Shown one piece after another: positions 309-41,261 of a stretch of 64,000 bases of DNA; position 1 is the first letter of the stretch, and every line of letters starts with the position of its first letter. Origin of the DNA: Candidatus Latescibacterota bacterium (GTDB taxonomy: Bacteria; Latescibacterota; UBA2968; UBA8231). The notes under the pieces were generated by a model. The model had not been told where the DNA came from. It worked only from the letters and a program-made list of their open reading frames with translations, and searched no databases. The stretch covers positions 2,016,001 to 2,080,000 of the forward strand of contig CBDETK010000013.1 in the NCBI GenBank assembly GCA_965242865.1, given 5' to 3'. A program made the position numbers and the translations under genes.

Positions 309-337
309 TTGACAACTGCATTTATGTTCACTATATT
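309..337 (+). promoter_or_regulatory. sigma-70 promoter upstream of parE
   Basis: TTGACA (309-314), 17-nt spacer, TATATT (332-337). Confidence 0.65.
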
Positions 338-476
338 AGACAAACGGAGTAAATTAGCAGCCGCACCCAAGAGAGCGAATCCCCTGCTTCTGTTTTCTCC
401 GCATTTAAGCGTCCCCACTGTCCGCCAGTCGCGTCCTTTCCCCACAGAGCGCGGCGCGTTCTACATTAACCCTTTT

Positions 477-2309
477 ATGAAAGCAATGGCTAAAACTGCA
501 ACCAATGGCCACGCCAACGGCAAGGCCACGTACGACGAAAGCAAGATCAAGACCCTCTCTTCACTCGAGCACATCCGCCTGCGGACCGGCATGTACATCG
601 GTCGGCTCGGCTCGGGCGACGACCCCGACGACGGCATCTATATATTGCTTAAGGAGGTCATCGACAACGCAGTCGATGAGTTCATCATGGGCTGTGGCAA
701 GCAGATCGATGTCGAAATCGACGAGGGGCGGGTCAAGGTCCGCGACTATGGCCGCGGCATTCCCCTCGGCAAAGTCGTCGAGTGCGTCTCGGTCATCAAC
801 ACCGGGGCCAAATACAACGACGATGTCTTCCAATTCAGCGTAGGGCTCAACGGCGTCGGCACCAAGGCCGTCAACGCGCTTTCCGCCCACTTCGTCGTCC
901 GTTCCTACCGCGACGGCCGGTGCGCCGAAGTGCTCTTTGAGCGCGGCGAGCTAAAAAAGCAAAAGAAGAGCCGAGCACCCAACGCGCCCGACGGCACGTA
1001 CGTCGAGTTTTTGCCCGATCCCGTCATCTTTGGCGAATGCGCCTTCAACCACGAATTCGTCGAGCGCCGGATGTGGAACTACGCCTGCCTCAACCGGGGC
1101 CTGCGCCTGTACTTCAACCGCCAAAAATTTGAATCCAAACGGGGCCTTTTCGACCTCCTCAACAGCGAAGCCGGCGACTCAGTGCTCTACCCGCCCGCTT
1201 ACTACAAGGGCCAGTATCTCGAATTTGCCTTCACGCACGTCGATAGCTACGGCGAGTCCTACCGCTCCTTTGTCAACGGCCAGTACACGGCCGACGGCGG
1301 CACCCACCAGAGCGCGTTCCGCGAGGGGGTGCTCAAGGGCGTCAACGAATTTTACAAGAAAACCTTCAACGGCGTTGATGTCCGCGATGGGGCCTTTGGC
1401 GTCGTCGCCGTCAAGGTCAAGGAGCCGGTTTTTGAGTCGCAGACCAAAAACAAGCTGGGCAATACCGACGTCCGCAGTTGGATCGTCAACCAGACCCGCG
1501 AGGCCATCGTCGATTTCCTCCACAAAAATCGAGAGACCGCGCAAAAGCTCGAAGGGCGCATTATCCACAACGAGAAGCTGCGCAAGGAGCTAAACGCGGT
1601 TAAAAAGGAAGCCAAGGAGGCGGCGCGCCGCATCGAGATCAAGATCCCCCAGCTCAAGGATTGCAAGTTTCACAAAGGCGACGACAAGCGCGGCGAAGAG
1701 TCCATGATCTTCATCGCCGAGGGTCAATCGGCGGCCGGCTCCATCGTCTCCTCGCGCGACCCGGAAACCCAAGCCATCTTCACGCTCAAGGGCAAGCCGC
1801 AAAACCTCTGCGGCAAAACCCGCGCCTCCATCTACAAAAACGAAGAGCTATACAACATGATGATGGCACTGGGCATTGAGGAGGACGTGGAAAATCTGCG
1901 CTACGACCGCGTCGTCTTGGCCACAGACGCCGACGAAGACGGCTTCCACATCCGCACCTTGCTCATGACTTTCTTCCTCACGTACTTTGAGGAGCTGGTC
2001 ACCAGTGGCCACCTCTACATTTTGGAGACCCCGCTCTTCCGGGTCCGCAACAAGCGACAGACCCTCTACTGCTACGACCAGCGCGAGCGCGAGCGCGCCG
2101 AGCACCGGCTCAAGGGCAGCGTCGAGATCACTCGCTTCAAGGGCTTGGGCGAAATCTCCCCCAAAGAATTCGGGCAGTTTATCAACGGCGACATGCGCTT
2201 GGTCAAGGTCGCCGTGCGCTCGCTAGACACCGTGCCGCAGACCCTCTCCTTTTACATGGGCAGAAACACCCCGGAACGCCGCGATTACATCATGGAGCAC
2301 TTAGTCTAA
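477..2309 (+). CDS. parE: Type II topoisomerase subunit B (topoisomerase IV ParE-like)
   Basis: HIRLRTGMYIG, EVIDNAVDE, DYGRGIP, GLNGVG (GHKL ATPase), EGQSA, DADEDG Toprim, RFKGLGE. Start taken at ATG 477 (or 486), not the upstream TTG. Confidence 0.9.
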   Translation: MKAMAKTATNGHANGKATYDESKIKTLSSLEHIRLRTGMYIGRLGSGDDPDDGIYILLKEVIDNAVDEFIMGCGKQIDVEIDEGRVKVRDYGRGIPLGKVVECVSVINTGAKYNDDVFQFSVGLNGVGTKAVNALSAHFVVRSYRDGRCAEVLFERGELKKQKKSRAPNAPDGTYVEFLPDPVIFGECAFNHEFVERRMWNYACLNRGLRLYFNRQKFESKRGLFDLLNSEAGDSVLYPPAYYKGQYLEFAFTHVDSYGESYRSFVNGQYTADGGTHQSAFREGVLKGVNEFYKKTFNGVDVRDGAFGVVAVKVKEPVFESQTKNKLGNTDVRSWIVNQTREAIVDFLHKNRETAQKLEGRIIHNEKLRKELNAVKKEAKEAARRIEIKIPQLKDCKFHKGDDKRGEESMIFIAEGQSAAGSIVSSRDPETQAIFTLKGKPQNLCGKTRASIYKNEELYNMMMALGIEEDVENLRYDRVVLATDADEDGFHIRTLLMTFFLTYFEELVTSGHLYILETPLFRVRNKRQTLYCYDQRERERAEHRLKGSVEITRFKGLGEISPKEFGQFINGDMRLVKVAVRSLDTVPQTLSFYMGRNTPERRDYIMEHLV

Positions 2310-4198
2310 TGGCCTATATCGACCACTTATACGAGAGCTACTTCCTCAAATACGCCTCGTACTACATTAAGGATCGCGCCATCCCACACCTCGACGACGG
2401 GCTTAAGCCCGTCCAGCGGCGCATCCTCTACGCGCTCCAGCAGATTGACGACGGCAAATTCCACAAGGTCGCCAATGTAGTCGGCCAAACCATGCAGTAC
2501 CACCCGCACGGCGACCAGTCGATTTACGGCGCCTTAGTCGTCCTCGCCAACAAGGACCTTTTCATCGAGAAACAGGGCAATTTCGGCAACATCTACACGG
2601 GCGACGAAGCCGCGGCCGCGCGCTATATCGAGTGCCGCCTCACGCCCTTGGCCAAGGAAGCCCTGTTCAACAAATCGCTTACTCCCTACGTCCCTTCGTA
2701 CGACGGGCGCAACGAAGAACCCGTGGTTTTTCCCGCCAAGCTCCCGGTGCTCCTCGCCCAAGGGGCCGAGGGCATTGCCATCGGCATGGCCACCAAAATT
2801 CTGCCGCACAACCTCGTCGAGCTCCTACAAGCCCAAGTCGCATACCTACAAGACCGGCCCTTTGCCATTCACCCGGATTTTCCCACCGGCGGGTTGGCCG
2901 ACCTTTCGGAGTACAACGACGGCAACGGCAAGGTCTTAGTCCGCGCCCGGCTCGACGCTTCCGACCCCAAGCGCATCCTCATCCGCGAGATTCCCTTCGG
3001 CACCACCACCGAACAACTCATCGCTTCCATAGAAGACGCGGCGCGCAAAAACAAGATCAAGATCGGCACCATCAGCGACTACACGGCCGAAGAGGTTGAG
3101 ATCGAAATCAAACTGCCGCGCGGCACGTACACCGAAGAGATCGTGGATGCGCTCTACGCCTTCACGGACTGCGAGACGTCGATTTCGACCCACCTGATGC
3201 TGATCAACCAGCAGGACAAGCCCCAAGTCATGAGCGCGACCGAAGTCTTGCAGCACAACGTCGATCGCCTCGTCGATATCCTCAAGGCCGAGCTGCACCT
3301 CGAATCCGACCAACTCAACGACCGGCTCCACGCCCGGACCTTGGAGCAGATTTTCATTGCCAACCGCGTGTACGAGGCCATTGAGAGCGAAGCCTCCTCC
3401 GAGCAGATCGCCGAGGCCGTACGGGCGGGGCTTGTGCCGTTTGCCGCCCAAATCAAACGCGCCGTCACGGCCGACGACATCGACGCCTTGCTCGCCATAC
3501 CAATCCGCCGCATCTCGCTCTACGACACCAACCGCGCCCAAAAGGAAATGGCCCAGATCCGCGGCCGGCTGCGCGAGATCAAGGGCCATTTAGACGGCAT
3601 CATCCCCTACGCCATTTCCTTTCTCCAAGACCTGATTAGCCGCTACCGCAGCCAGTTCCCGCGCCGCACCAAAATCGTGGAGCTCAAAAGAGTCGACGCT
3701 CGCTCGGCAGCCAACCGCAACCTCAAGCTCCGCTACGACAAAAAGACTGGCTATCTCGGCCATCAAATCAACGGCCCGGCCCTGTTCGACGTATCGCTCT
3801 ACGACAACGTACTCGCCATCCGCAAGGACGGCTCGTACTCGGTCGTCCAAGCGCCGGACAAGCTCTTCGTCGGCAAGGGCTTGCTCCACTGCGGCTTGGT
3901 CGATAAGGACCTAATTTTTAGCATCGTCTATAAGGACAAGGCCGGTGCCTCCTACATCAAGCGCTGCACAATTGACAAATTCATCTTAGGCCGCAGCTAT
4001 GAGCTAGTCCCGGCCGAGTGCAAGGTCCTCAAGCTGACGACCGACTCCGACAAAAAGATCGCCCTCGACTACAAGCCCAAGCCGCGCCTCCGCAAGCTCA
4101 ACGAGGTATTCCCCATCGGCCAATATCCCGTGCGTGGACACCGCGCCGGCGGCATTCGCCTGACGACCAAGGAACTAGCCGGGTGTAAGCTGGTGTGA
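2309..4198 (+). CDS. parC: Type II topoisomerase subunit A (topoisomerase IV ParC-like)
   Basis: [35 protein letters not shown] catalytic Tyr, [15 protein letters not shown]; overlaps parE stop (TAATG). Confidence 0.9.
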
Positions 4199-4296
4199 GC
4201 GGCCCTCAGCCGCTGCACTAATTCATATTCTACGCTGTTAGATATTTGGCTATATTACCGGCAGTAGGCTCATTATCAACCCTATTTTTCCTAAGA

Positions 4297-4316
4297 AATG
4301 ATTTAGGATTGCTATA
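4297..4316. repeat. Solo MITE terminal inverted repeat abutting the RM start codon
   Basis: aatgatttaggattgctata is the reverse complement (1 mismatch) of the left end of the MITE at 11957 (tatagcaatcctatatcatt). Confidence 0.65.
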
Positions 4317-7300
4317 TGGCGACAAGACAGGTCCTTAGAAGCCATCTCCGGGCGTATTACGACAGCTTGAAAACTACCTTTGCGACCAATCAGGCGACTG
4401 AGCACAGCTACCGCTCGGCCCTTGAGACCCTGGTTCAAGGGTTGGACAGCCAACAAGTTCGTGCTCTCAATGAGCCTAAGCGCATCGCTTGCGGTGCGCC
4501 CGATTTTATCGTTGAGCGGGGAGGGGTACCAATCGGCCATATCGAATGCAAGGATATCGGCGAACCCTTAGATCGCATCGAGAAAGACCCGCAACTGAAA
4601 CGCTACCGCGAGAGTCTGCCGAATCTGATCCTGACCGATCATTTAGAATTTCGCTGGTATGCAGAAGGGGAGTTGCGTCTAACAGCGCGGCTTGCACGCA
4701 TCGCCAGTCCAGATCGGATCGCCGTTGACGAGGCCGGAGCTTCCCAAGTTGCCGAATTGTTCACCGCGTTCTTTGCTGCTGACCTGCCATCCATCGGCAG
4801 ACCGCGTGAACTAGCCGAGCGCATGGCGGGCAAGGCGCGGCTACTCCGCGACAGCATTGAGCGCATCTTGGCGCAAGAAGCTGACAGCCCTCTGCACGAC
4901 TTGTTCGCCGGCTACCGCGAGGTGCTGATCGCCGACTTATCAGAACCCGACTTTGCCGACTTGCAGGCGCAGACAGCCGCTTACGGCCTGTTTGCAGCGC
5001 GGTGCCGACACGAACCTGTCAATGGACCTTTTACCCGACAGTCCGCCGCGTTTGCCGAGACCACGCCCTTTTTGCGAGATGTCTTTGGGCGGATTGCCGG
5101 GCCGGGGATGGACGAGCGGATCGCTTGGATCGTCGATGATCTGGCGTACCTGTTAGACCGAGCGGATATGGCGTCTATTCTGTCCGAGTTCGGCAAGAAG
5201 ACCCGGGGAGAAGACCCGGTAGTGCATTTCTACGAGGATTTCTTGGCGGCTTACGATCCGCACCTGCGTGAGATGCGTGGCGTGTACTATACGCCCGAAC
5301 CCGTGGTGTCTTATATCGTGCGGAGCGTGGACCACTTGTTGCGTACTCGGTTTGGCTTAGCCGATGGGCTGGCCGACACGGCGACGGTCGCGTCCCAAAA
5401 TGGGGGATCACCCCATCCACGAGTACTAATTCTCGACCCGGCGGCGGGCACGGGAACCTTCTTGCGCGAAGTGGTCTCCACCATCCGCAAGACCATTGAA
5501 GCGAAGGGATTAGGCGGTGCTTGGCCGAGCTACGTACATGAGCATCTTTTGCCGCGTCTGTTTGGGTTTGAGTTGCTGATGGCCCCTTATTCGATCTGCC
5601 ATCTGAAACTCGCGCTTGAAATTGGCGGGATAGACCGCGGCTTTGCCATGCCCGCCAGCGAGCGGCTCAATGTCTTCCTCACCAACGCCTTAGAAAAGGC
5701 GCACGAAGGGCCTATTCCCTCGCTATTCGTTCACGAAATAGCCCGCGAAGCGACCGGCGCGGATGAGATCAAGCGCGAGAAGCCAGTGATGGTGATCTTG
5801 GGCAACCCTCCCTATTCTGGACACTCGGCTAATAAAGGCGAGTGGATCAACAAATTGTTGAAAGGACGAGATGGAGAGCAAACAACAGGCAACTATTTTG
5901 AGGTGGACGGACAACCACTTGGCGAAAAAAATTCCAAGTGGCTAAACGACGACTATGTAAAATTCATCCGCTTTGCCCAATGGCGTATTGAGCGCACTGG
6001 CGAAGGCGTGCTGGGCTTCGTGACCAACCACAGCTATTTGGACAACCGGACCTTTCGCGGGATGCGCCGTAGCTTGATGAAAACCTTTGATGAGATCTAT
6101 TTGCTCGACCTGCACGGCAACGTGCGGCAAAGAGAGCATACCCCTGATGGCGGCAAAGATGAAAACGTGTTCGACATTCAGCAGGGCGTTTCTATTAGTC
6201 TATTTGTCAAATACAAAGATGTGGGTAGCGAGCCGTGTCGAATGTTTCATGCCGACTTGTGGGGAGAATGTGAGAACGGACCAGCCGGTAAATATGGCTG
6301 GCTCGTCGCCAACGGTGTCGATACCACCAAATGGAAAGAACTGTCGCCAAAATCGCCAGACTATATATTTGTGCCGCGAGACGAGGATCTGTTAGAAGAA
6401 TACAAAACAGGCTGGAAAGTCACGGACATTTTCCCAGACAATTCGACAGGTATTGTAAGCAAAAGAGATAAAATTGCTTTTCACTTTGAACAAAACGACT
6501 TGTACAAAGTGTTAAATGATTTCCACACTCTCGACGAGCATATTCTTAAAGAAAACTATAACTTCAGAGAAAGCAGAGATGGCAAGATAGGCTTTGTTAA
6601 GGAACATATTCAAAGTTATGGAATTAAGGATGAGTACGTAAAGCTTTGTCTATATAGGCCCTTTGATTATAGATGGACATACTACACGGATAAATCAAAA
6701 GGGTTTTTGGGATGGCCTGTGTATGAAGTCATGCGACATCTACTAGCCGGATCGAATCTTGGATTATGCATTGGCCGGGCCGGTCAAGTTACGGGTTCGG
6801 ACTTCTGGGATGTCGCGTTCGTCTCAAAATTTCCATCGGACTTTAATTTATTTCGGCGTGGTGGAAATTGTCTCTTTCCGCTCTATATATATCCAGCCGA
6901 AAAAGAAAAGAAATTCGGCAGTACCCGAACTCCAAACCTCAATCCCAAGTTTATCGAGGCAGTTGAAAAAGCCACTGACCTCAACTTCATCCCCGACGGC
7001 CCCGGCGACCTCAAAACTACCTTCGGCCCAGAGAATGTCTTCCACTACCTCTACGCCGTGCTCCACAGCCCAGAATACCGCCGCCGCTACGCCGACTTTC
7101 TCAAGTCAGATTTTCCCCGCATTCCCGTGACCAACTGCGCGGCACTGTTTGAGTCGCTCGCCGCGCTTGGGAAGCGGCTGACGGCCCTGCACTTAATGGA
7201 GCTCGATGAGGGCGAGGCCCCCGTCTTTCCGGTCGCTGGCGACAATCGAGTAGAAAAGGTGAGCTACGCGCCGTCACAGAAGCGGGTGTGGATCAACGGC

Positions 7301-7603
7301 AAGCAGTATTTTGACGGCATCGCGCAGCAGACTTGGGAATTCACCATTGGTGGCTACCAGCCGGCCGAGAAGTGGCTCAAGAACCGCAAAAATCGCACCC
7401 TCTCATACGACGACATTGGCCATTACTGCCGCCTCTGCGCGGCCTTGGCCGAGACGCCGCGCATCATGGCCAAAATTGACAAAACAATCGACGCCTATGG
7501 CGGTTGGCCGCTAGTTCAGGACGATTACCTGCGTGGCCTCTATCAGACGTTGAGCGAAGAATGGACCTCTCCAGAAGATGAGGAGGCTTGGTGTGCCCTT
7601 TGA
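4316..7603 (+). CDS. Single-chain type IIG/ISP-like RM enzyme (nuclease + N6-adenine MTase + specificity domain) with an antitoxin-like C-terminal tail
   Basis: PDF...IECK nuclease motif, GVYYTP, LDPAAGTGTF, GNPPY, C-terminal FTIGGYQPAEKWLKNRK...GGWPL; then extra tail QDDYLRGLYQTLSEEWTSPEDEEAWCAL. Confidence 0.85.
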   Translation: MATRQVLRSHLRAYYDSLKTTFATNQATEHSYRSALETLVQGLDSQQVRALNEPKRIACGAPDFIVERGGVPIGHIECKDIGEPLDRIEKDPQLKRYRESLPNLILTDHLEFRWYAEGELRLTARLARIASPDRIAVDEAGASQVAELFTAFFAADLPSIGRPRELAERMAGKARLLRDSIERILAQEADSPLHDLFAGYREVLIADLSEPDFADLQAQTAAYGLFAARCRHEPVNGPFTRQSAAFAETTPFLRDVFGRIAGPGMDERIAWIVDDLAYLLDRADMASILSEFGKKTRGEDPVVHFYEDFLAAYDPHLREMRGVYYTPEPVVSYIVRSVDHLLRTRFGLADGLADTATVASQNGGSPHPRVLILDPAAGTGTFLREVVSTIRKTIEAKGLGGAWPSYVHEHLLPRLFGFELLMAPYSICHLKLALEIGGIDRGFAMPASERLNVFLTNALEKAHEGPIPSLFVHEIAREATGADEIKREKPVMVILGNPPYSGHSANKGEWINKLLKGRDGEQTTGNYFEVDGQPLGEKNSKWLNDDYVKFIRFAQWRIERTGEGVLGFVTNHSYLDNRTFRGMRRSLMKTFDEIYLLDLHGNVRQREHTPDGGKDENVFDIQQGVSISLFVKYKDVGSEPCRMFHADLWGECENGPAGKYGWLVANGVDTTKWKELSPKSPDYIFVPRDEDLLEEYKTGWKVTDIFPDNSTGIVSKRDKIAFHFEQNDLYKVLNDFHTLDEHILKENYNFRESRDGKIGFVKEHIQSYGIKDEYVKLCLYRPFDYRWTYYTDKSKGFLGWPVYEVMRHLLAGSNLGLCIGRAGQVTGSDFWDVAFVSKFPSDFNLFRRGGNCLFPLYIYPAEKEKKFGSTRTPNLNPKFIEAVEKATDLNFIPDGPGDLKTTFGPENVFHYLYAVLHSPEYRRRYADFLKSDFPRIPVTNCAALFESLAALGKRLTALHLMELDEGEAPVFPVAGDNRVEKVSYAPSQKRVWINGKQYFDGIAQQTWEFTIGGYQPAEKWLKNRKNRTLSYDDIGHYCRLCAALAETPRIMAKIDKTIDAYGGWPLVQDDYLRGLYQTLSEEWTSPEDEEAWCAL

Positions 7604-7925
7604 TCCGTTCGATGTCGTCGTCGTTCCCTTCCCCTTCGCAGACCTCAGTAAAAAGAAATGCCGCCCAGCACTAGTCGTCTCTTCAGTGAGCTTCAATCAG
7701 GTCCACGCGCAAACAATCCTCGCCATGATTACGAGCACGAAAAACAGATGGCCAAGCGATATAGTCATTGAGGATTGGCGGGAAGCCGGCCTCAATGTAC
7801 CTTGCAAAATCCGCCTCAAGCTCTTCACGCTCGATAATAAATCGGTGATATGCAAAATCGGCAGGCTGTCGAAACGGGACGAGAAATCCATCGTAGCTAC
7901 TCTCGCCGCTTCACTGACGAAGTAG
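7593..7925 (+). CDS. mazF: PemK/MazF-family toxin (endoribonuclease)
   Basis: FDVVVVPFPFADLSKKKCRPALVVS...AMITS...AGL; SD AGGAGG 7581-7586 before GTG 7593; overlaps end of RM gene. Confidence 0.85.
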   Translation: MPFDPFDVVVVPFPFADLSKKKCRPALVVSSVSFNQVHAQTILAMITSTKNRWPSDIVIEDWREAGLNVPCKIRLKLFTLDNKSVICKIGRLSKRDEKSIVATLAASLTK

Positions 7926-7930
7926 CTCCT

Positions 7931-7949
7931 CAGCAAGGAAAACGCCATG
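7931..7949 (+). repeat. 19-bp direct repeat copy 1 (RBS+ATG of pepF)
   Basis: cagcaaggaaaacgccatg identical to 10113-10131. Confidence 0.85.
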
Positions 7950-7959
7950 GCTGCACTGA

Positions 7960-8310
7960 TTCAAATCCCTTTTTTCTCGTAAGAAATGGAGTAATTCCAG
8001 TCTAGGGCTTGATGGAGAAGGTCTCCAAAGACGTTTTGACCTTACAGACGCCATTATTGATGTAAGTACCCTGATATTGTTTGGCAGTTTGTCAACTAAT
8101 GACTTCTTGCCAGAAGAAGTCGAAGATAAATGTATTATTGGTTCAATGCTCGGCGACAGGCCAAAATTGGAAAAATACATTAAAGAACGATATATTTGGG
8201 TCAGTCGAATTACTGGAGGAGCAACGTCCAATAGGATGGGGTATCTAGCTCAAAATTATGTCAAGGAGCGCTTGATCCAATATCTCCCAAGTTGGAATTT
8301 TTCACAGACT
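7960..8310 (+). pseudogene. Internal fragment of a type II restriction endonuclease (BanI/HgiCI-like), in frame with the downstream MTase
   Basis: FKSL...SNSSLGLDG...ILFGS...KCIIGSMLG...ERYIWVSRITGGATSN, recalled as BanI-family-like; frame opens after TGA 7957-7959 with no proper start. Confidence 0.5.
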
Positions 8311-10071
8311 ATGAAAATGGCCCATAGAAGTGAAAACTGCAAATCTCTAGACATCTCAACAAGGACATTTGCAGATTTGCAAAAATTGTCGTCAAAGTCA
8401 TTGCGTCCAGATGTATGGCTTTTCCATTTGACGACAGAAATTGGTTTCGACGATGAAATTCCTATAGAAACCCTTAATCAGGGATTCGCCGATTTCCTTA
8501 AAAAATTGCCTGAAGAAAGTACAATTTGTTTTTTAGCAAATCCTCGTATAGCTTGCTATGTGGTAGAAGAATTTCAGAACCGCGTCAACTTCAAACTTTG
8601 GATTGCTGTCAAGCGCAAAAAAAATATACTACGATTGAATGCTTTGCCAGATAGCCATATTGCTCTTTTAGTTTTTACCCGTTGCAAAGGTTCTTTAAGA
8701 CACAATAAGACTCAAATAGAATATACGTACTGTCCTGCTTGTAAGAAAACAACAAAGGACTACGGAGGCAAGAAGCATATTTATAGCCCTTATGGGACGC
8801 TTATGTCTGATATTTGGCGAGACATTTCTTATGATAATGACGCAAAACCAAGAGCTATTCTGAACAGACTGAAGGATCTCTTTGGACATGAACCTTATCG
8901 CGAACTGATTTACTGCGATGTTAGGAACTTTCTTACGTGTTCCAACAAGAGAAAATTCCACTCTGCAAACGGAATAATCAATAACCCCGGCGAGAGTCGT
9001 TTACTCAATGGAGATTGTTTAGATGTCCTCAAGAACATTCCTGAAAATTCCGTAGATTTTATTTTTGCTGATCCTCCATATAATATAAAAAAGAAATACG
9101 ATAACTGGAATGATGCCCAAGACATTAGTAATTACTTCTCATGGTGCGACCAATGGATAGCTGAATCAGCTAGAATTTTGAAACCCGGTCGGACTTTTGC
9201 AATTATAAATATTCCTCTCTGGATCGTCAGACACTTTTCGTTCGCACAAAGCATTTTGGATTACCAAGATTGGATAGTTTGGGAGGGCTTGAGCTTGCCC
9301 GTCAGAAAAATTATGCCGGCCCATTACGGAATAATTTGTTTTAGTAAAGGCCATCCAATCGAAATTGCCAATCATCAAAAGAAAGCCCGTAGAGAAACCC
9401 CCCAAGACTTTATGAGCCTCAAACCATGGTATTGTGTTAGGGCTTCTTGTATTAAAAAAAGAAATGCAGCCAAAATTACCGACCGACAGCCGATTGGAAA
9501 TTTATGGTGGGACATTCACAGACTAAAGCACAATTCAAAAAGAGTTGATCATCCATGTCAACTACCCCCATCACTAATGAAGCGACTTATCTACACCTTT
9601 ACCAAAGAAGGAGATCTTGTTTTAGATCCTTTTAACGGCGCGGGTACAACGACCTTAACATCAAAGATGCTTGGCAGAAAATTCATTGGAATTGAATTGT
9701 CGGCTAAATATCATGCAATTGCCGAACAGAGACATTTAGAGCTGCAAAAAGGGAGAGACCCGTTTGCAAAAAATGGCACTACTCCAAAAGCAAAGAATAG
9801 TCGAGTTGCAAGACTACAAAAACAGAAGTATGAAGTGCCAAAAAAAACACTCCAGATCGAAGTCAAGGAGATTGCTATCAAACTGGGACGCCGGCCCGAT
9901 AGAGAAGATATTATTAGACTCAGCAAATACCCAATTCGTTATTTTGACGAATACTTCATCGACTGGGGAGAAGTGTGTAGTGCCGTTGGCGACAAAGGAA
10001 TGACTGAAAATTTCTCTCAATCCATTAGCACTCGACCCGACGATCAACAAATGGAACTCTCTTTTGGATAG
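8311..10071 (+). CDS. Beta-class N4/N6 DNA methyltransferase with extra N- and C-terminal domains
   Basis: GDCL..L, FADPPYN, HPCQLP, LDPFNGAGTT (motif IV before motif I); AT-rich; start uncertain (frame open from 7960). Confidence 0.85.
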   Translation: MKMAHRSENCKSLDISTRTFADLQKLSSKSLRPDVWLFHLTTEIGFDDEIPIETLNQGFADFLKKLPEESTICFLANPRIACYVVEEFQNRVNFKLWIAVKRKKNILRLNALPDSHIALLVFTRCKGSLRHNKTQIEYTYCPACKKTTKDYGGKKHIYSPYGTLMSDIWRDISYDNDAKPRAILNRLKDLFGHEPYRELIYCDVRNFLTCSNKRKFHSANGIINNPGESRLLNGDCLDVLKNIPENSVDFIFADPPYNIKKKYDNWNDAQDISNYFSWCDQWIAESARILKPGRTFAIINIPLWIVRHFSFAQSILDYQDWIVWEGLSLPVRKIMPAHYGIICFSKGHPIEIANHQKKARRETPQDFMSLKPWYCVRASCIKKRNAAKITDRQPIGNLWWDIHRLKHNSKRVDHPCQLPPSLMKRLIYTFTKEGDLVLDPFNGAGTTTLTSKMLGRKFIGIELSAKYHAIAEQRHLELQKGRDPFAKNGTTPKAKNSRVARLQKQKYEVPKKTLQIEVKEIAIKLGRRPDREDIIRLSKYPIRYFDEYFIDWGEVCSAVGDKGMTENFSQSISTRPDDQQMELSFG

Positions 10072-37960: not shown

Positions 37961-40900
37961 TTAGCGGCCGCCCTTTGAGTCAAACAACTCGTGGTTTTTT
38001 GACTGCTTAGGCGGCTTGTGCATTTCGTCTGGGATGGCTGGCAGCTCGGTGGCTTGGAAGCAATCGCTGGCGACGACGGCGTCGAGTAGCCGCTGCTGTT
38101 CGGGATAGCCCTGCACGGTTGCGGCCAAAACCCAGAGCAATTCGAGTAACTCCGTGGTAAACTGGCTGGTCCAGCGCGTGGGGCGGACCGCGTCGAGGGG
38201 CGACGACTTTTTGCCGGCCCCTTGCTTCATGCGGTACTTGAGCCAAGACGGCACGACCTTGAGGCCCGAAACCTCAAATTCGTACACCGCCGGCCCAACG
38301 GGCGCGAACGCACCTGAGCCGAGGTGGAGCGTTTGGGTCGCTTCGTCGTACGCGAATGATTCGGGATAGCCCTCGGCGTCGCCTGGAACAGCTTTGGTGC
38401 ATTTGGCCGCACCGGGCGGAATGCGCCCGCGGGTCTGGCCTTGGGGAACAAAACGCTCGCCAAAGGTGTGTAGCCACAGCAGCCGCGCTCCTACCTTGCG
38501 GACCTGCTCGAACAGCGCCGCATCCTTGGTAATGGGTACGCACCGAGTGCGCGTTGCTAATTCTCGCTCAAAGCGCGCCGTGAAAGCGGGGTGCGCCAGC
38601 ACTCCGTACAGGTAGGCGAGGAAATGTTCGGGCGCGATGTTGCGTTGGTAGGCCGTGCCGAGGGTGTTGAGCAGGTCGGGCGCGATGTTCGCCTGAGAGG
38701 CGTCGGCCGTGCGGTAGAGGGGAATGGCGTCTTTGGCGCCCCGCCCCGAAAAGTGATGCAGATCGGGCAGTAAGGCGCAGGCGGTTGCCGCTGGCCCGCG
38801 GCCTAGGGGATCGTTCAGCAGCGTCGTCAAATACACCTGCCGCTCGCTGTGGACGCGCCACAGGTCGGGGCGTGGGCGGGACATCACGCGCCCGTCCGCG
38901 ATGATGGAATGGCGGTCAAAAGAGCGATACGCATAGCGTAGGACTTGGGGAACGGGCGCGTTATTTGGTAGTTCGGAAATCGGCGTTGAGTCGCTCGACC
39001 TCGTCAGGGCGATGCGATAGGTCCCATTGATGGTGCGGTCTCCGGTCTCGCGGAACGCCTCGGCGCGCTGGTTGGCACACAGCAGTCCGCGCCAGCGTCG
39101 TTTTAGCGTCTCCTCGTCCGGTGCGATCGGCCAAGTCCGCTTGAACTGCACCCCCGAATGCTGCCACGGCATGAGATCGGTCAGCAACGGCCAGCCAAAG
39201 TACGCTCCTTGGCCCACCGGACGGAATGGGGCCTGCCAGTCGTCTGAGCATGCCTGCCACGTTACGTCCTCAAAGCGTTCCATAGCGGCGAGCACGGTGA
39301 GTTTTTCCCGGCGCGTACCTTCGATGCGCGTGTAATGCACGGCGGCGGGTCGGTCCGGGTGCGCCTTTTTTGCGCGGAAGGCCACCGCAATGGCCACGGG
39401 CGTTTGAATCGCAAAGACATTGTCGTCTTGGCGCGTGCCGCGCCCCTCGCCGCCGAGGTCGAGAATCCAAACCTCGTCGCACTGCCGGCGGATGTGCTCG
39501 CGCATCCCACAAAAGGCGTCGCCGTCGAGATAACTCGACGCGGTGATAAAACTGACCACCCCCGGGCCGCGCACCGGGTCGTGCTCAAAGACTTTCCACA
39601 AGGCCCACCGCCAGAAATAGACGTAAAGGTTGTAGAGGTTTTTGAGGTGGACGCCGCGTCCAGCGGCGAGGACCGGGTCGAGAAAGGTGCGGAGGATGGC
39701 GTCTTCGCCCTTCCCGTTTTCGCCCCAGCGCACCCAAGAGCCGGTGCGATCGCCGTTGGTCGGCGTGGCCGCTTCGTGGCGGTCGTAGGGCGGGTTGCCG
39801 AGGCAGACGATGACCGGCACTTCGCTCTTGACTTTGAGTGCCTTGACCCGTTGGTCGGCGATGGGCCGCAGGAAGAACCCCAAGTTGGGCGGTTCAGCGT
39901 GGGGGCTTTCGAGCGTGTCGGTCAGATACACGTGCGGCCCGTCTGGGGGTAGCTGGGCACCGCGGTCGCGCAGGGCGCGGCTGACGCGCAGTTCGCTCAC
40001 GGCGTACGGGCCGACCATCCGCTCAAAGCCGTAGAGATTTTCAGCGAGGGTGCTGGCCTGACCGGGCACGGCCCCCGGCCCCTGCTCGGTTTCGATCCGG
40101 CCGAGGGCGTGTTCCACGACGCCGAGTAAATAGGTCCCGGTGCCGACCGCCGGATCGAGCGTGACGACGCCGGGATCGGCAAACCCGAGCGGCTTGTCGA
40201 GACAGCGCACGAGCAAGTCGTCGATGAGGCGCACTTGGGCGCGGACGACCTCCACCGGCGTGTAGTAAGCCCCGGCGTCTCGGCGTAGTTTGGGATCGTA
40301 CTCGGCGAGGAAGTCTTCGTAGAAATAGAGCCACGGATCTTCGGGGCCGGTGAGCAGGGCGGGCGGCACCACGGCCATGACGCGCAGCAGCAAGTTGAGG
40401 GAGGCGGTGAGGTCCGCACGGGCTTGGGGATCGGTCAGGATTTGCACGGCCCGCGACAGCAGGTTGTGCTGAGCGTTGAGGGCCTGCACCGCGCTTTCGA
40501 GCGCGAGCGGGTCCGCTCCTTCGCTGCGGCCTAGCAACAGGGCGAAAGCGACCGTCTGGGCGTAAGCGTCCGCGAATTGCGCGTCCGTGGCGTCTGGGAA
40601 CAGCAGGTGCCGCCAGTCGCCGGCCAGTTGCGCTAGGGGCGAATTGGGGGCTTTGAGCGCGTCCGTCACGTCGTCGCGCAACATGCGGCACAGGGGAGCC
40701 AGCAGCGCGGCAAAGCCCTTGAGGTGGATCGCGCCGCTGCGATTGACGGGGATGATGGGCTCCCACGCGAGAAAGTCGCGCAAGAGTGCTTCGAGCACAC
40801 GGGCGTCTGGGGGCGAGGCGGCTGCGCGGCCAGCGGCGACGACATCGCCCGACAGGCGGCACCCCCGCACCTGTTGGCCGCCGCGGTACAGCGCCCACTC

Positions 40901-41242
40901 GTTGCCGTCGGTGTAGAGGAGGTTGGGGATGGCCGAGAACCGCTTGAACTGCTCGCGGTTGCGGCCTCTGAACCGGGTGGAGGTCGCGCCGACGCCGGGC
41001 GCCTTGAGCTCGACGTAGCCAGCGAGCAGTTGATTGCGATGAATGGCGTAATCGGGACGACCGAGCCGGTCGGGCAGGGGCGTTTCCCCGGTGCAGACGA
41101 CCGCCCAGCCGAAAGCGCGGCCCACTTCGCCCATAAAGCTCTCAAACGGGCCGCGCACTTGGTCTTCTGGCGCACCAGCGACCGCTTGCGTCGTTTTGGC
41201 TTGCACTGCATCGGCAAAGCCTTGTAACGCCTCGTACAGCAC
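37961..41242 (-). CDS. Second single-chain type IIG/ISP-like RM enzyme
   Basis: PDY...GYVELK, GAYYTP, LDPAVGTGTY, GNPPY, YRSFD, FEVSGLKV..SWLKYR; start taken at GTG 41242. Confidence 0.85.
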   Translation of the reverse strand: MLYEALQGFADAVQAKTTQAVAGAPEDQVRGPFESFMGEVGRAFGWAVVCTGETPLPDRLGRPDYAIHRNQLLAGYVELKAPGVGATSTRFRGRNREQFKRFSAIPNLLYTDGNEWALYRGGQQVRGCRLSGDVVAAGRAAASPPDARVLEALLRDFLAWEPIIPVNRSGAIHLKGFAALLAPLCRMLRDDVTDALKAPNSPLAQLAGDWRHLLFPDATDAQFADAYAQTVAFALLLGRSEGADPLALESAVQALNAQHNLLSRAVQILTDPQARADLTASLNLLLRVMAVVPPALLTGPEDPWLYFYEDFLAEYDPKLRRDAGAYYTPVEVVRAQVRLIDDLLVRCLDKPLGFADPGVVTLDPAVGTGTYLLGVVEHALGRIETEQGPGAVPGQASTLAENLYGFERMVGPYAVSELRVSRALRDRGAQLPPDGPHVYLTDTLESPHAEPPNLGFFLRPIADQRVKALKVKSEVPVIVCLGNPPYDRHEAATPTNGDRTGSWVRWGENGKGEDAILRTFLDPVLAAGRGVHLKNLYNLYVYFWRWALWKVFEHDPVRGPGVVSFITASSYLDGDAFCGMREHIRRQCDEVWILDLGGEGRGTRQDDNVFAIQTPVAIAVAFRAKKAHPDRPAAVHYTRIEGTRREKLTVLAAMERFEDVTWQACSDDWQAPFRPVGQGAYFGWPLLTDLMPWQHSGVQFKRTWPIAPDEETLKRRWRGLLCANQRAEAFRETGDRTINGTYRIALTRSSDSTPISELPNNAPVPQVLRYAYRSFDRHSIIADGRVMSRPRPDLWRVHSERQVYLTTLLNDPLGRGPAATACALLPDLHHFSGRGAKDAIPLYRTADASQANIAPDLLNTLGTAYQRNIAPEHFLAYLYGVLAHPAFTARFERELATRTRCVPITKDAALFEQVRKVGARLLWLHTFGERFVPQGQTRGRIPPGAAKCTKAVPGDAEGYPESFAYDEATQTLHLGSGAFAPVGPAVYEFEVSGLKVVPSWLKYRMKQGAGKKSSPLDAVRPTRWTSQFTTELLELLWVLAATVQGYPEQQRLLDAVVASDCFQATELPAIPDEMHKPPKQSKNHELFDSKGGR

Positions 41243-41261
41243 GTTGCGATGGCCTTTCGCG

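Follow-up and report, generated by a model that had tools for sequence, protein, structure and literature searches.

How is a MazF toxin held in check when the gene in front of it encodes a restriction–modification (RM) enzyme instead of a small antitoxin? The question is raised by a 64,000-nucleotide (nt) stretch of DNA from a Candidatus Latescibacterota bacterium (GCA_965242865.1, contig CBDETK010000013.1, positions 2,016,001 to 2,080,000 of the forward strand; hereafter the window, in whose own numbering positions are given), in which a long open reading frame (ORF) for an RM enzyme runs into an overlapping mazF/pemK gene. A preliminary description, made from the sequence alone, had proposed that the RM protein ends in an antitoxin-like peptide and itself neutralizes MazF. 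Our comparisons identify this peptide as a homolog of the toxin-binding C-terminus of MazE antitoxins, and we consider it probable that the two genes constitute a chimeric type II toxin–antitoxin (TA) module, in which the RM protein would be the carrier of the antitoxin for MazF. The elements concerned are:

4316-7603, + strand: single-chain Type IIG/IIL RM enzyme with MazE tail, 1095 amino acids (aa) (Pfam, PADLOC and PDB sequence matches)
7514-7600, + strand: MazE-derived, putatively toxin-binding tail, aa 1067-1095, in frame with the RM enzyme (homology; ratio of nonsynonymous to synonymous substitution rates, dN/dS; models)
7581-7586, + strand: AGGAGG, ribosome-binding site (RBS) of mazF within the tail codons (D-E-E-A) (sequence)
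7593-7925, + strand: mazF/pemK toxin gene, 110 aa from GTG (Pfam PemK_toxin PF02452, 5.8e-14)

The antitoxin-type tail and its toxin

The RM frame comprises 1095 uninterrupted codons and ends with the TGA at 7601-7603. The pentapeptide GGWPL occupies aa 1062-1066 (nt 7499-7513), after which the frame continues into VQDDYLRGLYQTLSEEWTSPEDEEAWCAL (aa 1067-1095, nt 7514-7600). The mazF GTG at 7593 lies six bases 3' of the AGGAGG, its frame closes with the TAG at 7923-7925, and the gene overlaps the end of the RM ORF by 11 nt; an alternative in-frame mazF ATG is present at 7578, canonical relatives possessing the GTG only. The AGGAGG is identical across all nine tail sequences compared (9/9), and the same AGGAGG-N6-GTG overlap geometry is likewise seen in canonical mazEF paralogs. 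As to the frame passing GGWPL into an in-frame tail, the AGGAGG within the tail codons and the mazF overlap, the preliminary description had every position right. Its view of GGWPL as the family-typical end holds for the nearest tail-less relatives only, and other homologs end differently. A 66%-identical tail-less homolog from another family ends in GGWPLSQ followed directly by the stop codon, which shows the position of the ancestral RM stop; another tail-less homolog has GGWPG with an unrelated extension, and 14 homologs of 43-46% identity have other endings and no tail. Tail and overlapping toxin gene are both absent from each of the 16 tail-less homologous loci with a C-terminal match (16/16).

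The provenance of the tail emerges from what precedes related toxins. With MazF as the query, 37 of 61 related genomes gave matches in several identity tiers, and the DNA upstream of these was translated. The 85-89%-identical mazF orthologs, from seven other genomes of the same genus, are all preceded by an RM C-terminus plus tail, with overlap. The ~60%-identical mazF paralogs (L009-L011) are preceded instead by a 74-aa protein; its residues 4-47 match Pfam MazE_antitoxin (2.7e-9), and the RM tail aligns with the remainder, residues 48-74, at 18/28 identical positions (64%; BLASTP E 7e-11). The junction between RM enzyme and tail coincides exactly with the end of the AbrB domain of this MazE. 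Twelve tails were combined into a profile (A1), which at E<=1e-3 recovered 61 of 1.84 billion representative proteins: 58 proteins of 31-109 aa and three RM fragments (124, 278 and 528 aa). In 54 of the 58 small proteins the match ends three or fewer residues from the C-terminus. The similarity between tail and MazE is far beyond chance and, judged by these alignments, the tail is a true homolog of the C-terminal, toxin-binding part of the small MazE antitoxins whose genes precede mazF. The preliminary description had called the tail typical of small antitoxins encoded upstream of PemK/MazF and had suggested a search of such upstream proteins; the search found the antitoxin homologs, and the claim stands. 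A Pfam scan of the RM protein gave no family match in the tail region, and an NCBIfam scan gave sub-threshold matches only. Seven small proteins (P0046, P0049, P0056, P0065, P0071, P0073 and P0088) carry the tail motif at the C-terminus behind an N-terminal part not evidently of AbrB type, a hint that other N-terminal domains, too, have been combined with the tail; some of these cases may be gene-calling artifacts.

Over one genome per prokaryotic species, the tail profile gave 158 pattern matches, 116 of them confirmed. Among the best 80, which were analyzed, the MazE hidden Markov model matched 71 loci at full length, one partially and eight at positions 46-74 only. The eight tail-only loci are the RM fusions, all from metagenome-assembled genomes of Candidatus Latescibacterota, and the other 72 come from many phyla. 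A 74-aa ORF, counted from the first ATG, is present in 55 of the 71 full-length MazE loci, and MazF lies downstream in 73 of the 80 (it is missing in L055, L067, L083, L097, L110, L116 and L125). Going by this distribution, DxYLxGL...EWxSPEDEEAWxxL is the signature of a MazE subfamily that is widespread and moves horizontally, and only in one genus has such a tail become attached to an RM enzyme.

The preliminary description had seen no separate antitoxin gene, and our survey agrees with it. The six small ORFs around the junction all lack a Pfam match (6/6) and are ruled out as a separate antitoxin, and there is no second tail copy in the genome. In the latter, which is 93.6% complete, the MazE profile has five matches; the RM tail alone lies at positions 46-74, the other four covering AbrB only, and by this count no cognate antitoxin is available in trans. 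Alternatively, translation might also begin within the RM frame, close to its 3' end, and yield a separate small antitoxin; starting at the Met of ...RIMAKID..., to give one example, this would be 45 aa long. As far as the proteins are concerned, RM enzyme and antitoxin would then be fused in appearance only. A gene caller indeed produced a 45-aa protein (P0004) on a 940-nt contig, and this Met is conserved; however, it is conserved in tail-less homologs too and thus belongs to the RM domain. Further, it lacks an upstream AGGAGG-like site, of which mazF has a perfect example, a search of 6900-7600 for promoter-like sites gave none (a weak test), and the frame is open through the junction in nine of the ten fusion-bearing genomes described below. 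We regard an internally initiated antitoxin as improbable.

The toxin retains the residues expected of its family. R24 and T47 are invariant, and S48 is present in at least 90%, of 20 aligned MazFs that reach down to 29% identity. A MazF profile matched the solved MazF9 and EndoA in the PDB, with R24, T47 and S48 aligned to the RPA and TS motifs, whose Arg and Thr/Ser we take to be the catalytic residues of the solved MazFs; phmmer with MazF against the PDB returned nothing at 0.01, so that the profile search was required. PADLOC assigned MazF to no family, and a search for viral contigs with MazF gave 13 pattern matches, none of them confirmed.

Structure prediction bears on how tail and toxin might meet. 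In an AlphaFold model of RM residues 700-1095 (mean predicted local distance difference test score, pLDDT, 72.9), the tail forms two short helices (pLDDT 57-62), which come after the last confident RM helix and are separated from it by a short linker; so modeled, the tail is probably an exposed appendage of the enzyme. A complex of two MazF chains with a 31-residue tail, modeled from custom alignments, scored 0.85, as against 0.00 for the best of three controls; this mark is attained by 58 of 80 solved complexes and by two of 110 mismatched pairs, and, as solved MazE–MazF complexes exist, the score may partly mirror likeness to known structures. Contacts agree by at least 91% between runs, with a partner pLDDT of at least 79. 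The predicted contacts are to MazF residues 22-25, 45 and 47-50 of one subunit and 76-84 of both, such that the tail would cover the catalytic site at the dimer interface. This model, too, had been among the checks suggested at the outset, and its outcome favors the proposed pairing.

Recurrence, natural variants and selection

Is the fusion peculiar to one assembly? The RM protein as a query matched 38 of the 61 genomes at E<=1e-20, and a reading of their C-termini found the tail-bearing fusion in ten genomes of the same genus. A search with the region of the last 40 residues gave 25 protein clusters, 22 of which are 1078-1096 aa long, all with PF18135. The ten genomes present the following forms:

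G000, G002, G023, G026 and G029: RM enzyme full length, tail in frame, mazF intact
G001, G013 and G022: C-terminal fragment of the RM enzyme only, tail in frame, mazF intact
G008: RM enzyme full length, tail in frame, ~16 codons of mazF left
G007: RM enzyme full length, tail removed by a TAG exactly at GGWPLV/DDYL, ~22 codons of mazF left

Contigs from other studies also span RM enzyme, tail and mazF: X10 (6963 nt) over 6971-7915, X5 over 7139-7804 and X6, which shows no differences, over 7397-7679. Independent assemblies and these bridging contigs rule out an assembly artifact, and the search for the same fusion elsewhere, as the preliminary description had advised, reveals it to be no one-off. 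RNA-library data of a relative include a 1125-nt contig over 6986-7920, a weak hint of co-transcription of RM enzyme, tail and mazF; such libraries can contain DNA, and RNA runs make up a small share (0.04) of the sampled words.

The variants are instructive as to what is kept and what is lost. An in-frame tail in an ORF of at least 330 aa is present in all eight genomes with an intact mazF (8/8), and the sole genome with the tail cut off (G007) is one that has lost mazF. In G013 and G022 an exactly in-frame deletion of 2010 nt removes the nuclease and methyltransferase (MTase) domains and retains the RM start codon, the target-recognition domain (TRD), the tail and an intact mazF; the resulting 418-aa protein belongs to a cluster with 10 member sequences. 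In G001 a 330-aa C-terminal ORF with tail stands beside an intact mazF, the N-terminal 772 residues being found ~175 kb away. The two pieces of this split gene (G001:C1 2162199-2164520, + strand, RM residues 1-772; 2339610-2340587, - strand, residues 767-1093) lie on opposite strands, as would be expected had an inversion broken the gene. As three of the eight genomes with intact mazF carry a catalytically dead fragment, the link between RM protein and tail is kept without RM activity.

These fragments bear on a different explanation, namely a guard or two-layer defense, in which a phage that inhibits or degrades the RM enzyme, or shuts off the host, would cause MazF to abort the infection, in the manner of PrrC-EcoprrI or of PARIS-like systems. 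Such a guard is consistent with all the evidence for a chimeric TA module: a defense enzyme is physically tethered to a peptide predicted to bind a toxin, this peptide is modeled as a low-confidence, probably exposed appendage, and the TRD differs between relatives, as in a gene engaged in an arms race. However, the phage trigger is not predictable from sequence, and the three genomes that keep only TRD and tail, without the nuclease and MTase domains, weaken it as a general role. Further, a DNA-mimic inhibitor seated in the DNA cleft of the RM enzyme would have no obvious route to displacing a C-terminal tail from MazF. We consider a guard function unlikely.

Selection speaks to whether the tail has any role at all. 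In a codon alignment of nine tail-bearing genes, with the mazF-overlapping codons excluded, dN/dS is 0.12-0.13 for the tail and 0.23-0.25 for the RM core next to it; mazF, for comparison, has 0.23. The values are pairwise sums over related genomes, with only 21-26 codons for the tail. An RM-core value of 0.60 from unaligned sequences was dropped as unreliable owing to indels, and the codon alignment was used in its place. By this measure the tail is under purifying selection. The fusion could nevertheless be conceived as a neutral deletion scar, with MazF inactive or neutralized in trans and the tail devoid of a role: it goes back to a single evolutionary event in one genus, G008 has a tail without mazF, and at least one relative (G001) also possesses a canonical paralogous mazEF with a similar tail. 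A relic of this kind sits poorly with purifying selection on both tail and mazF, with a catalytic Arg and Thr/Ser that are invariant in 20 of 20 aligned MazFs, with an own genome devoid of any other tail copy, and with the retention of the tail through large RM deletions whenever mazF is intact (8/8). We consider a neutral relic very improbable.

The RM enzyme and its genomic setting

The enzyme that bears the tail has the following parts:

4499-4552, + strand: PD-x13-E-x-K nuclease motif (PDF-x13-ECK), aa 62-79 (sequence motif)
5435-5815, + strand: N6-adenine MTase core, from motif I DPAAGTGTF (aa 374-382) to motif IV NPPY (aa 497-500)
6425-7468, + strand: Type_ISP_C target-recognition/C-terminal domain, aa 704-1051 (Pfam)

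Pfam finds N6_Mtase at aa 300-506 and Type_ISP_C at aa 704-1051 (E 3.7e-82), with no helicase family among the matches, and PADLOC calls the protein REase_MTase_IIG (E 1.7e-283). In a PDB sequence search the MTase-TRD part matches LlaBIII (4xqk, 1e-41), a 1029-aa single-chain enzyme (7lo5, 7e-37) and LlaGI; only residues 844-1525 of LlaBIII align with the RM protein. All aligned homologs (22/22) share E29, P62, D63, E77 and K79. The gene apparently encodes an intact Type IIG/IIL (MmeI/DrdV-like) enzyme. Identity with a Type ISP enzyme or with the PglX of BREX was considered and ruled out, helicase and BREX neighbors being absent and the PD-ExK motif present.

The first ~100 residues of the Type_ISP_C domain are variable and lack DNA homology to relatives. 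Against most of these the blastn alignment has a gap at ~6434-6725 (RM aa ~707-805), at the start of the TRD, and at least two TRD alleles occur on the same scaffold: the type of the window, starting WKVTDIF, is also found in P0009 and in the N-terminal piece of G001, the common type starting WSIPSIF. This suggests that specificity is exchanged while tail and mazF stay constant. The genome encodes several more Type IIG-like paralogs with 29-45% identity to the RM enzyme, one of them within the window (39362-41248, - strand), where the frame is open for 1142 aa; the tail is absent from all those read.

The boundaries of the module are sharp. The blastn homology to seven relatives begins at 4314, 2 nt 5' of the RM ATG, ends at ~7920, ~5 nt before the mazF stop, and is broken only at the variable TRD stretch. 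In the window, the module lies between a topoisomerase IV-like gene pair and a methyltransferase gene, and is flanked by an imperfect direct repeat:

4213-4300, no strand: upstream copy of the imperfect direct repeat flanking the module (sequence)
7948-7988, no strand: downstream copy of the same repeat (sequence)

In the relatives, it lies downstream of serS-folD and upstream of a higA/higB pair, and the 3' end of folD recurs on either side of it as direct repeats (151 nt at 98.7% identity and a 59-nt copy). As the homology is confined to the module and the genomic contexts differ, RM enzyme, tail and mazF have traveled as a single unit. The relatives' homology boundary also falls directly 3' of the GyrB/ParE-GyrA/ParC-like pair. 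At the folD site of the window's own genome stands a different large ATPase-like gene. This site looks like an insertion hot spot with exchangeable defense or TA cargo; no integrase was seen in the stretches read around it.

Several further observations concern the neighborhoods. The folD-end repeats of the relatives (L022 1335-1485, 4778-4836 and 5705-5855; L023 5200-5290) are 59-151 nt long and 92-99% identical, and the RM-mazF module and higA/higB form two successive cassettes behind folD. In the window, the topoisomerase-like genes at 309-4198 (+ strand) abut each other and encode a GyrB/ParE-like protein of 666 aa and a short GyrA/ParC-like one of 629 aa (DNA_topoisoIV, 1.8e-109). The ORF 3' of mazF (8077-10071, + strand, 664 aa) begins with a fragment of a BanI-type restriction endonuclease (REase), its aa 1-85 corresponding to positions 152-237 of the 338-position profile; it further has an N6_N4 DNA methylase domain at aa 326-550, a weak HNH-repeat match and a PADLOC assignment to MTase_II (2.6e-61), and gives the impression of a methyltransferase with a truncated REase joined to it or lying in front of it. 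A promoter and terminator scan of 4000-8200 was uninformative, its counts not exceeding those of shuffled sequences.

Proposed mechanism and comparison with known systems

We propose the following origin and mode of action for the chimeric TA module. An ancestral mazEF pair would have come to lie downstream of a Type IIG/IIL RM gene. A deletion would then have taken out the RM stop codon together with the AbrB DNA-binding domain of MazE, joining the native RM C-terminus (GGWPL and two further residues) in frame to a MazF-binding tail of ~27 residues. The RM protein would thereby have become the carrier of the only cognate antitoxin peptide, and mazF translation would be coupled to it via the inherited RBS and GTG inside the tail codons. 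Each RM tail would lie across a MazF dimer and cover the catalytic Arg24 and Thr47 in the manner of a MazE tail. Because the toxin would need the tail, the RM 3' end could be neither lost nor silenced while mazF is intact, a form of addiction that the deletion variants illustrate. The RNase might be set free if host gene expression were arrested or the exposed tail were clipped.

That the RM protein neutralizes MazF, as the preliminary description had claimed, is the best inference, given the homology of the tail, the lack of any other antitoxin, the recurrence of the fusion and the model of the complex; the phage trigger that it had added is without evidence here, and addiction is better supported than release of the toxin by phage inhibition. 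Several points weigh against the chimeric module nonetheless. Toxicity of MazF, binding and rescue by the tail, and the physiological trigger are all things that we infer. The operator-binding AbrB domain is gone, and with it dosage control of the MazE type. G008 retains the tail although its mazF is broken, so a tail without toxin survives for some time. The recurrence reflects a single event inherited vertically within one genus, whose members are kin and not independent witnesses; the dN/dS of the tail is likewise drawn from few codons of such kin, and the model score may owe something to known complexes. In the PDB a MazE profile matched only AbrB domains (positions 2-48), and the tail has no sequence match among solved chains. 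Finally, a word-based search for small proteins with the tail returned RM fragments in eight of eight cases and no small antitoxin, a null that was later superseded by the reading of upstream neighbors and the exhaustive profile search.

A MazF leashed by a fused antitoxin peptide would have consequences for RM biology. Single-chain Type IIG/IIL enzymes combine restriction and modification in one protein and lack classical two-gene post-segregational killing; the leashed toxin would supply addiction to such an enzyme and physically couple a DNA-targeting innate defense to an RNA-targeting suicide effector. More broadly, a neutralizing segment of ~27 residues might act as a transferable module apart from its DNA-binding domain, a point of interest for the evolution of TA systems and for engineered toxin leashes alike. 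Nature itself offers a ready-made allelic series, with full RM enzyme, 418-aa fragment, tail cut by a stop codon and mazF lost. A bolder idea, to which we give only a small chance, is that RM-tail and MazF form a two-layer immune module, with the RM enzyme as both first defense and the sensor and antidote of an abortive line, and that MazE tails are portable leashes in general. Were this so, phage escape with host shut-off, or proteolysis or displacement of the tail, would free MazF and halt translation, and evolution could graft such leashes onto any protein whose synthesis needs to be enforced or monitored.

How, then, does this locus relate to known systems? With canonical MazE-MazF and PemI-PemK it shares the toxin family, a homologous tail, the antitoxin-first order and the overlap with translational coupling through an RBS in the tail codons; the predicted inhibition, in which the tail lies across the catalytic site where the two subunits meet, is likewise that of MazEF. 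Unlike in MazEF, the AbrB DNA-binding and dimerization domain is replaced by an RM enzyme of 1066 residues, which rules out operator binding of the MazE type and conditional cooperativity, and the antitoxin is a large enzyme that is probably stable except for its tail. In our reading, the module is a descendant of MazEF that would likewise work in its manner, but its antitoxin is not a small DNA-binding protein. The enzyme itself resembles the MmeI/DrdV-type IIL proteins in being one polypeptide of ~1000-1100 aa with an N-terminal PD-ExK motif, a gamma-class N6-adenine MTase, a C-terminal TRD and no helicase, and differs from them in its 29-residue C-terminal extension of antitoxin origin and in the overlapping toxin gene.

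In logic only, the module resembles PrrC with the Type Ic enzyme EcoprrI. Two reports (PMC1484252, PMC2610378) describe how a linked RM enzyme keeps PrrC silent and how an anti-restriction factor of a phage activates it; here, too, an RNase toxin would be held latent by physical association with a linked RM enzyme. PrrC is an ABC-ATPase and anticodon nuclease encoded in a Type I hsd operon and activated by the Stp peptide of T4; that combination is absent from our locus, which pairs a MazF toxin with a Type IIG enzyme and has as its putative silencer an antitoxin tail in covalent linkage with the latter. Defense proteins to which a toxin domain is fused or coupled are also on record, e.g., pVip or SMC with HicA (PMC10865869); in these cases and in the fused CapRel-type TAs the toxin is itself fused or coupled, or toxin and antitoxin are fused to each other, unlike the present arrangement, in which the neutralizing antitoxin peptide alone would reside on the defense enzyme and the toxin is a separate gene. 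The portions of the literature searched, including passages of PMC3879964 and PMC2701414, describe no RM-antitoxin fusion. What appears to be new here is thus an antitoxin tail on an RM enzyme, an arrangement within the known logic of MazEF, found in one genus of uncultured bacteria.

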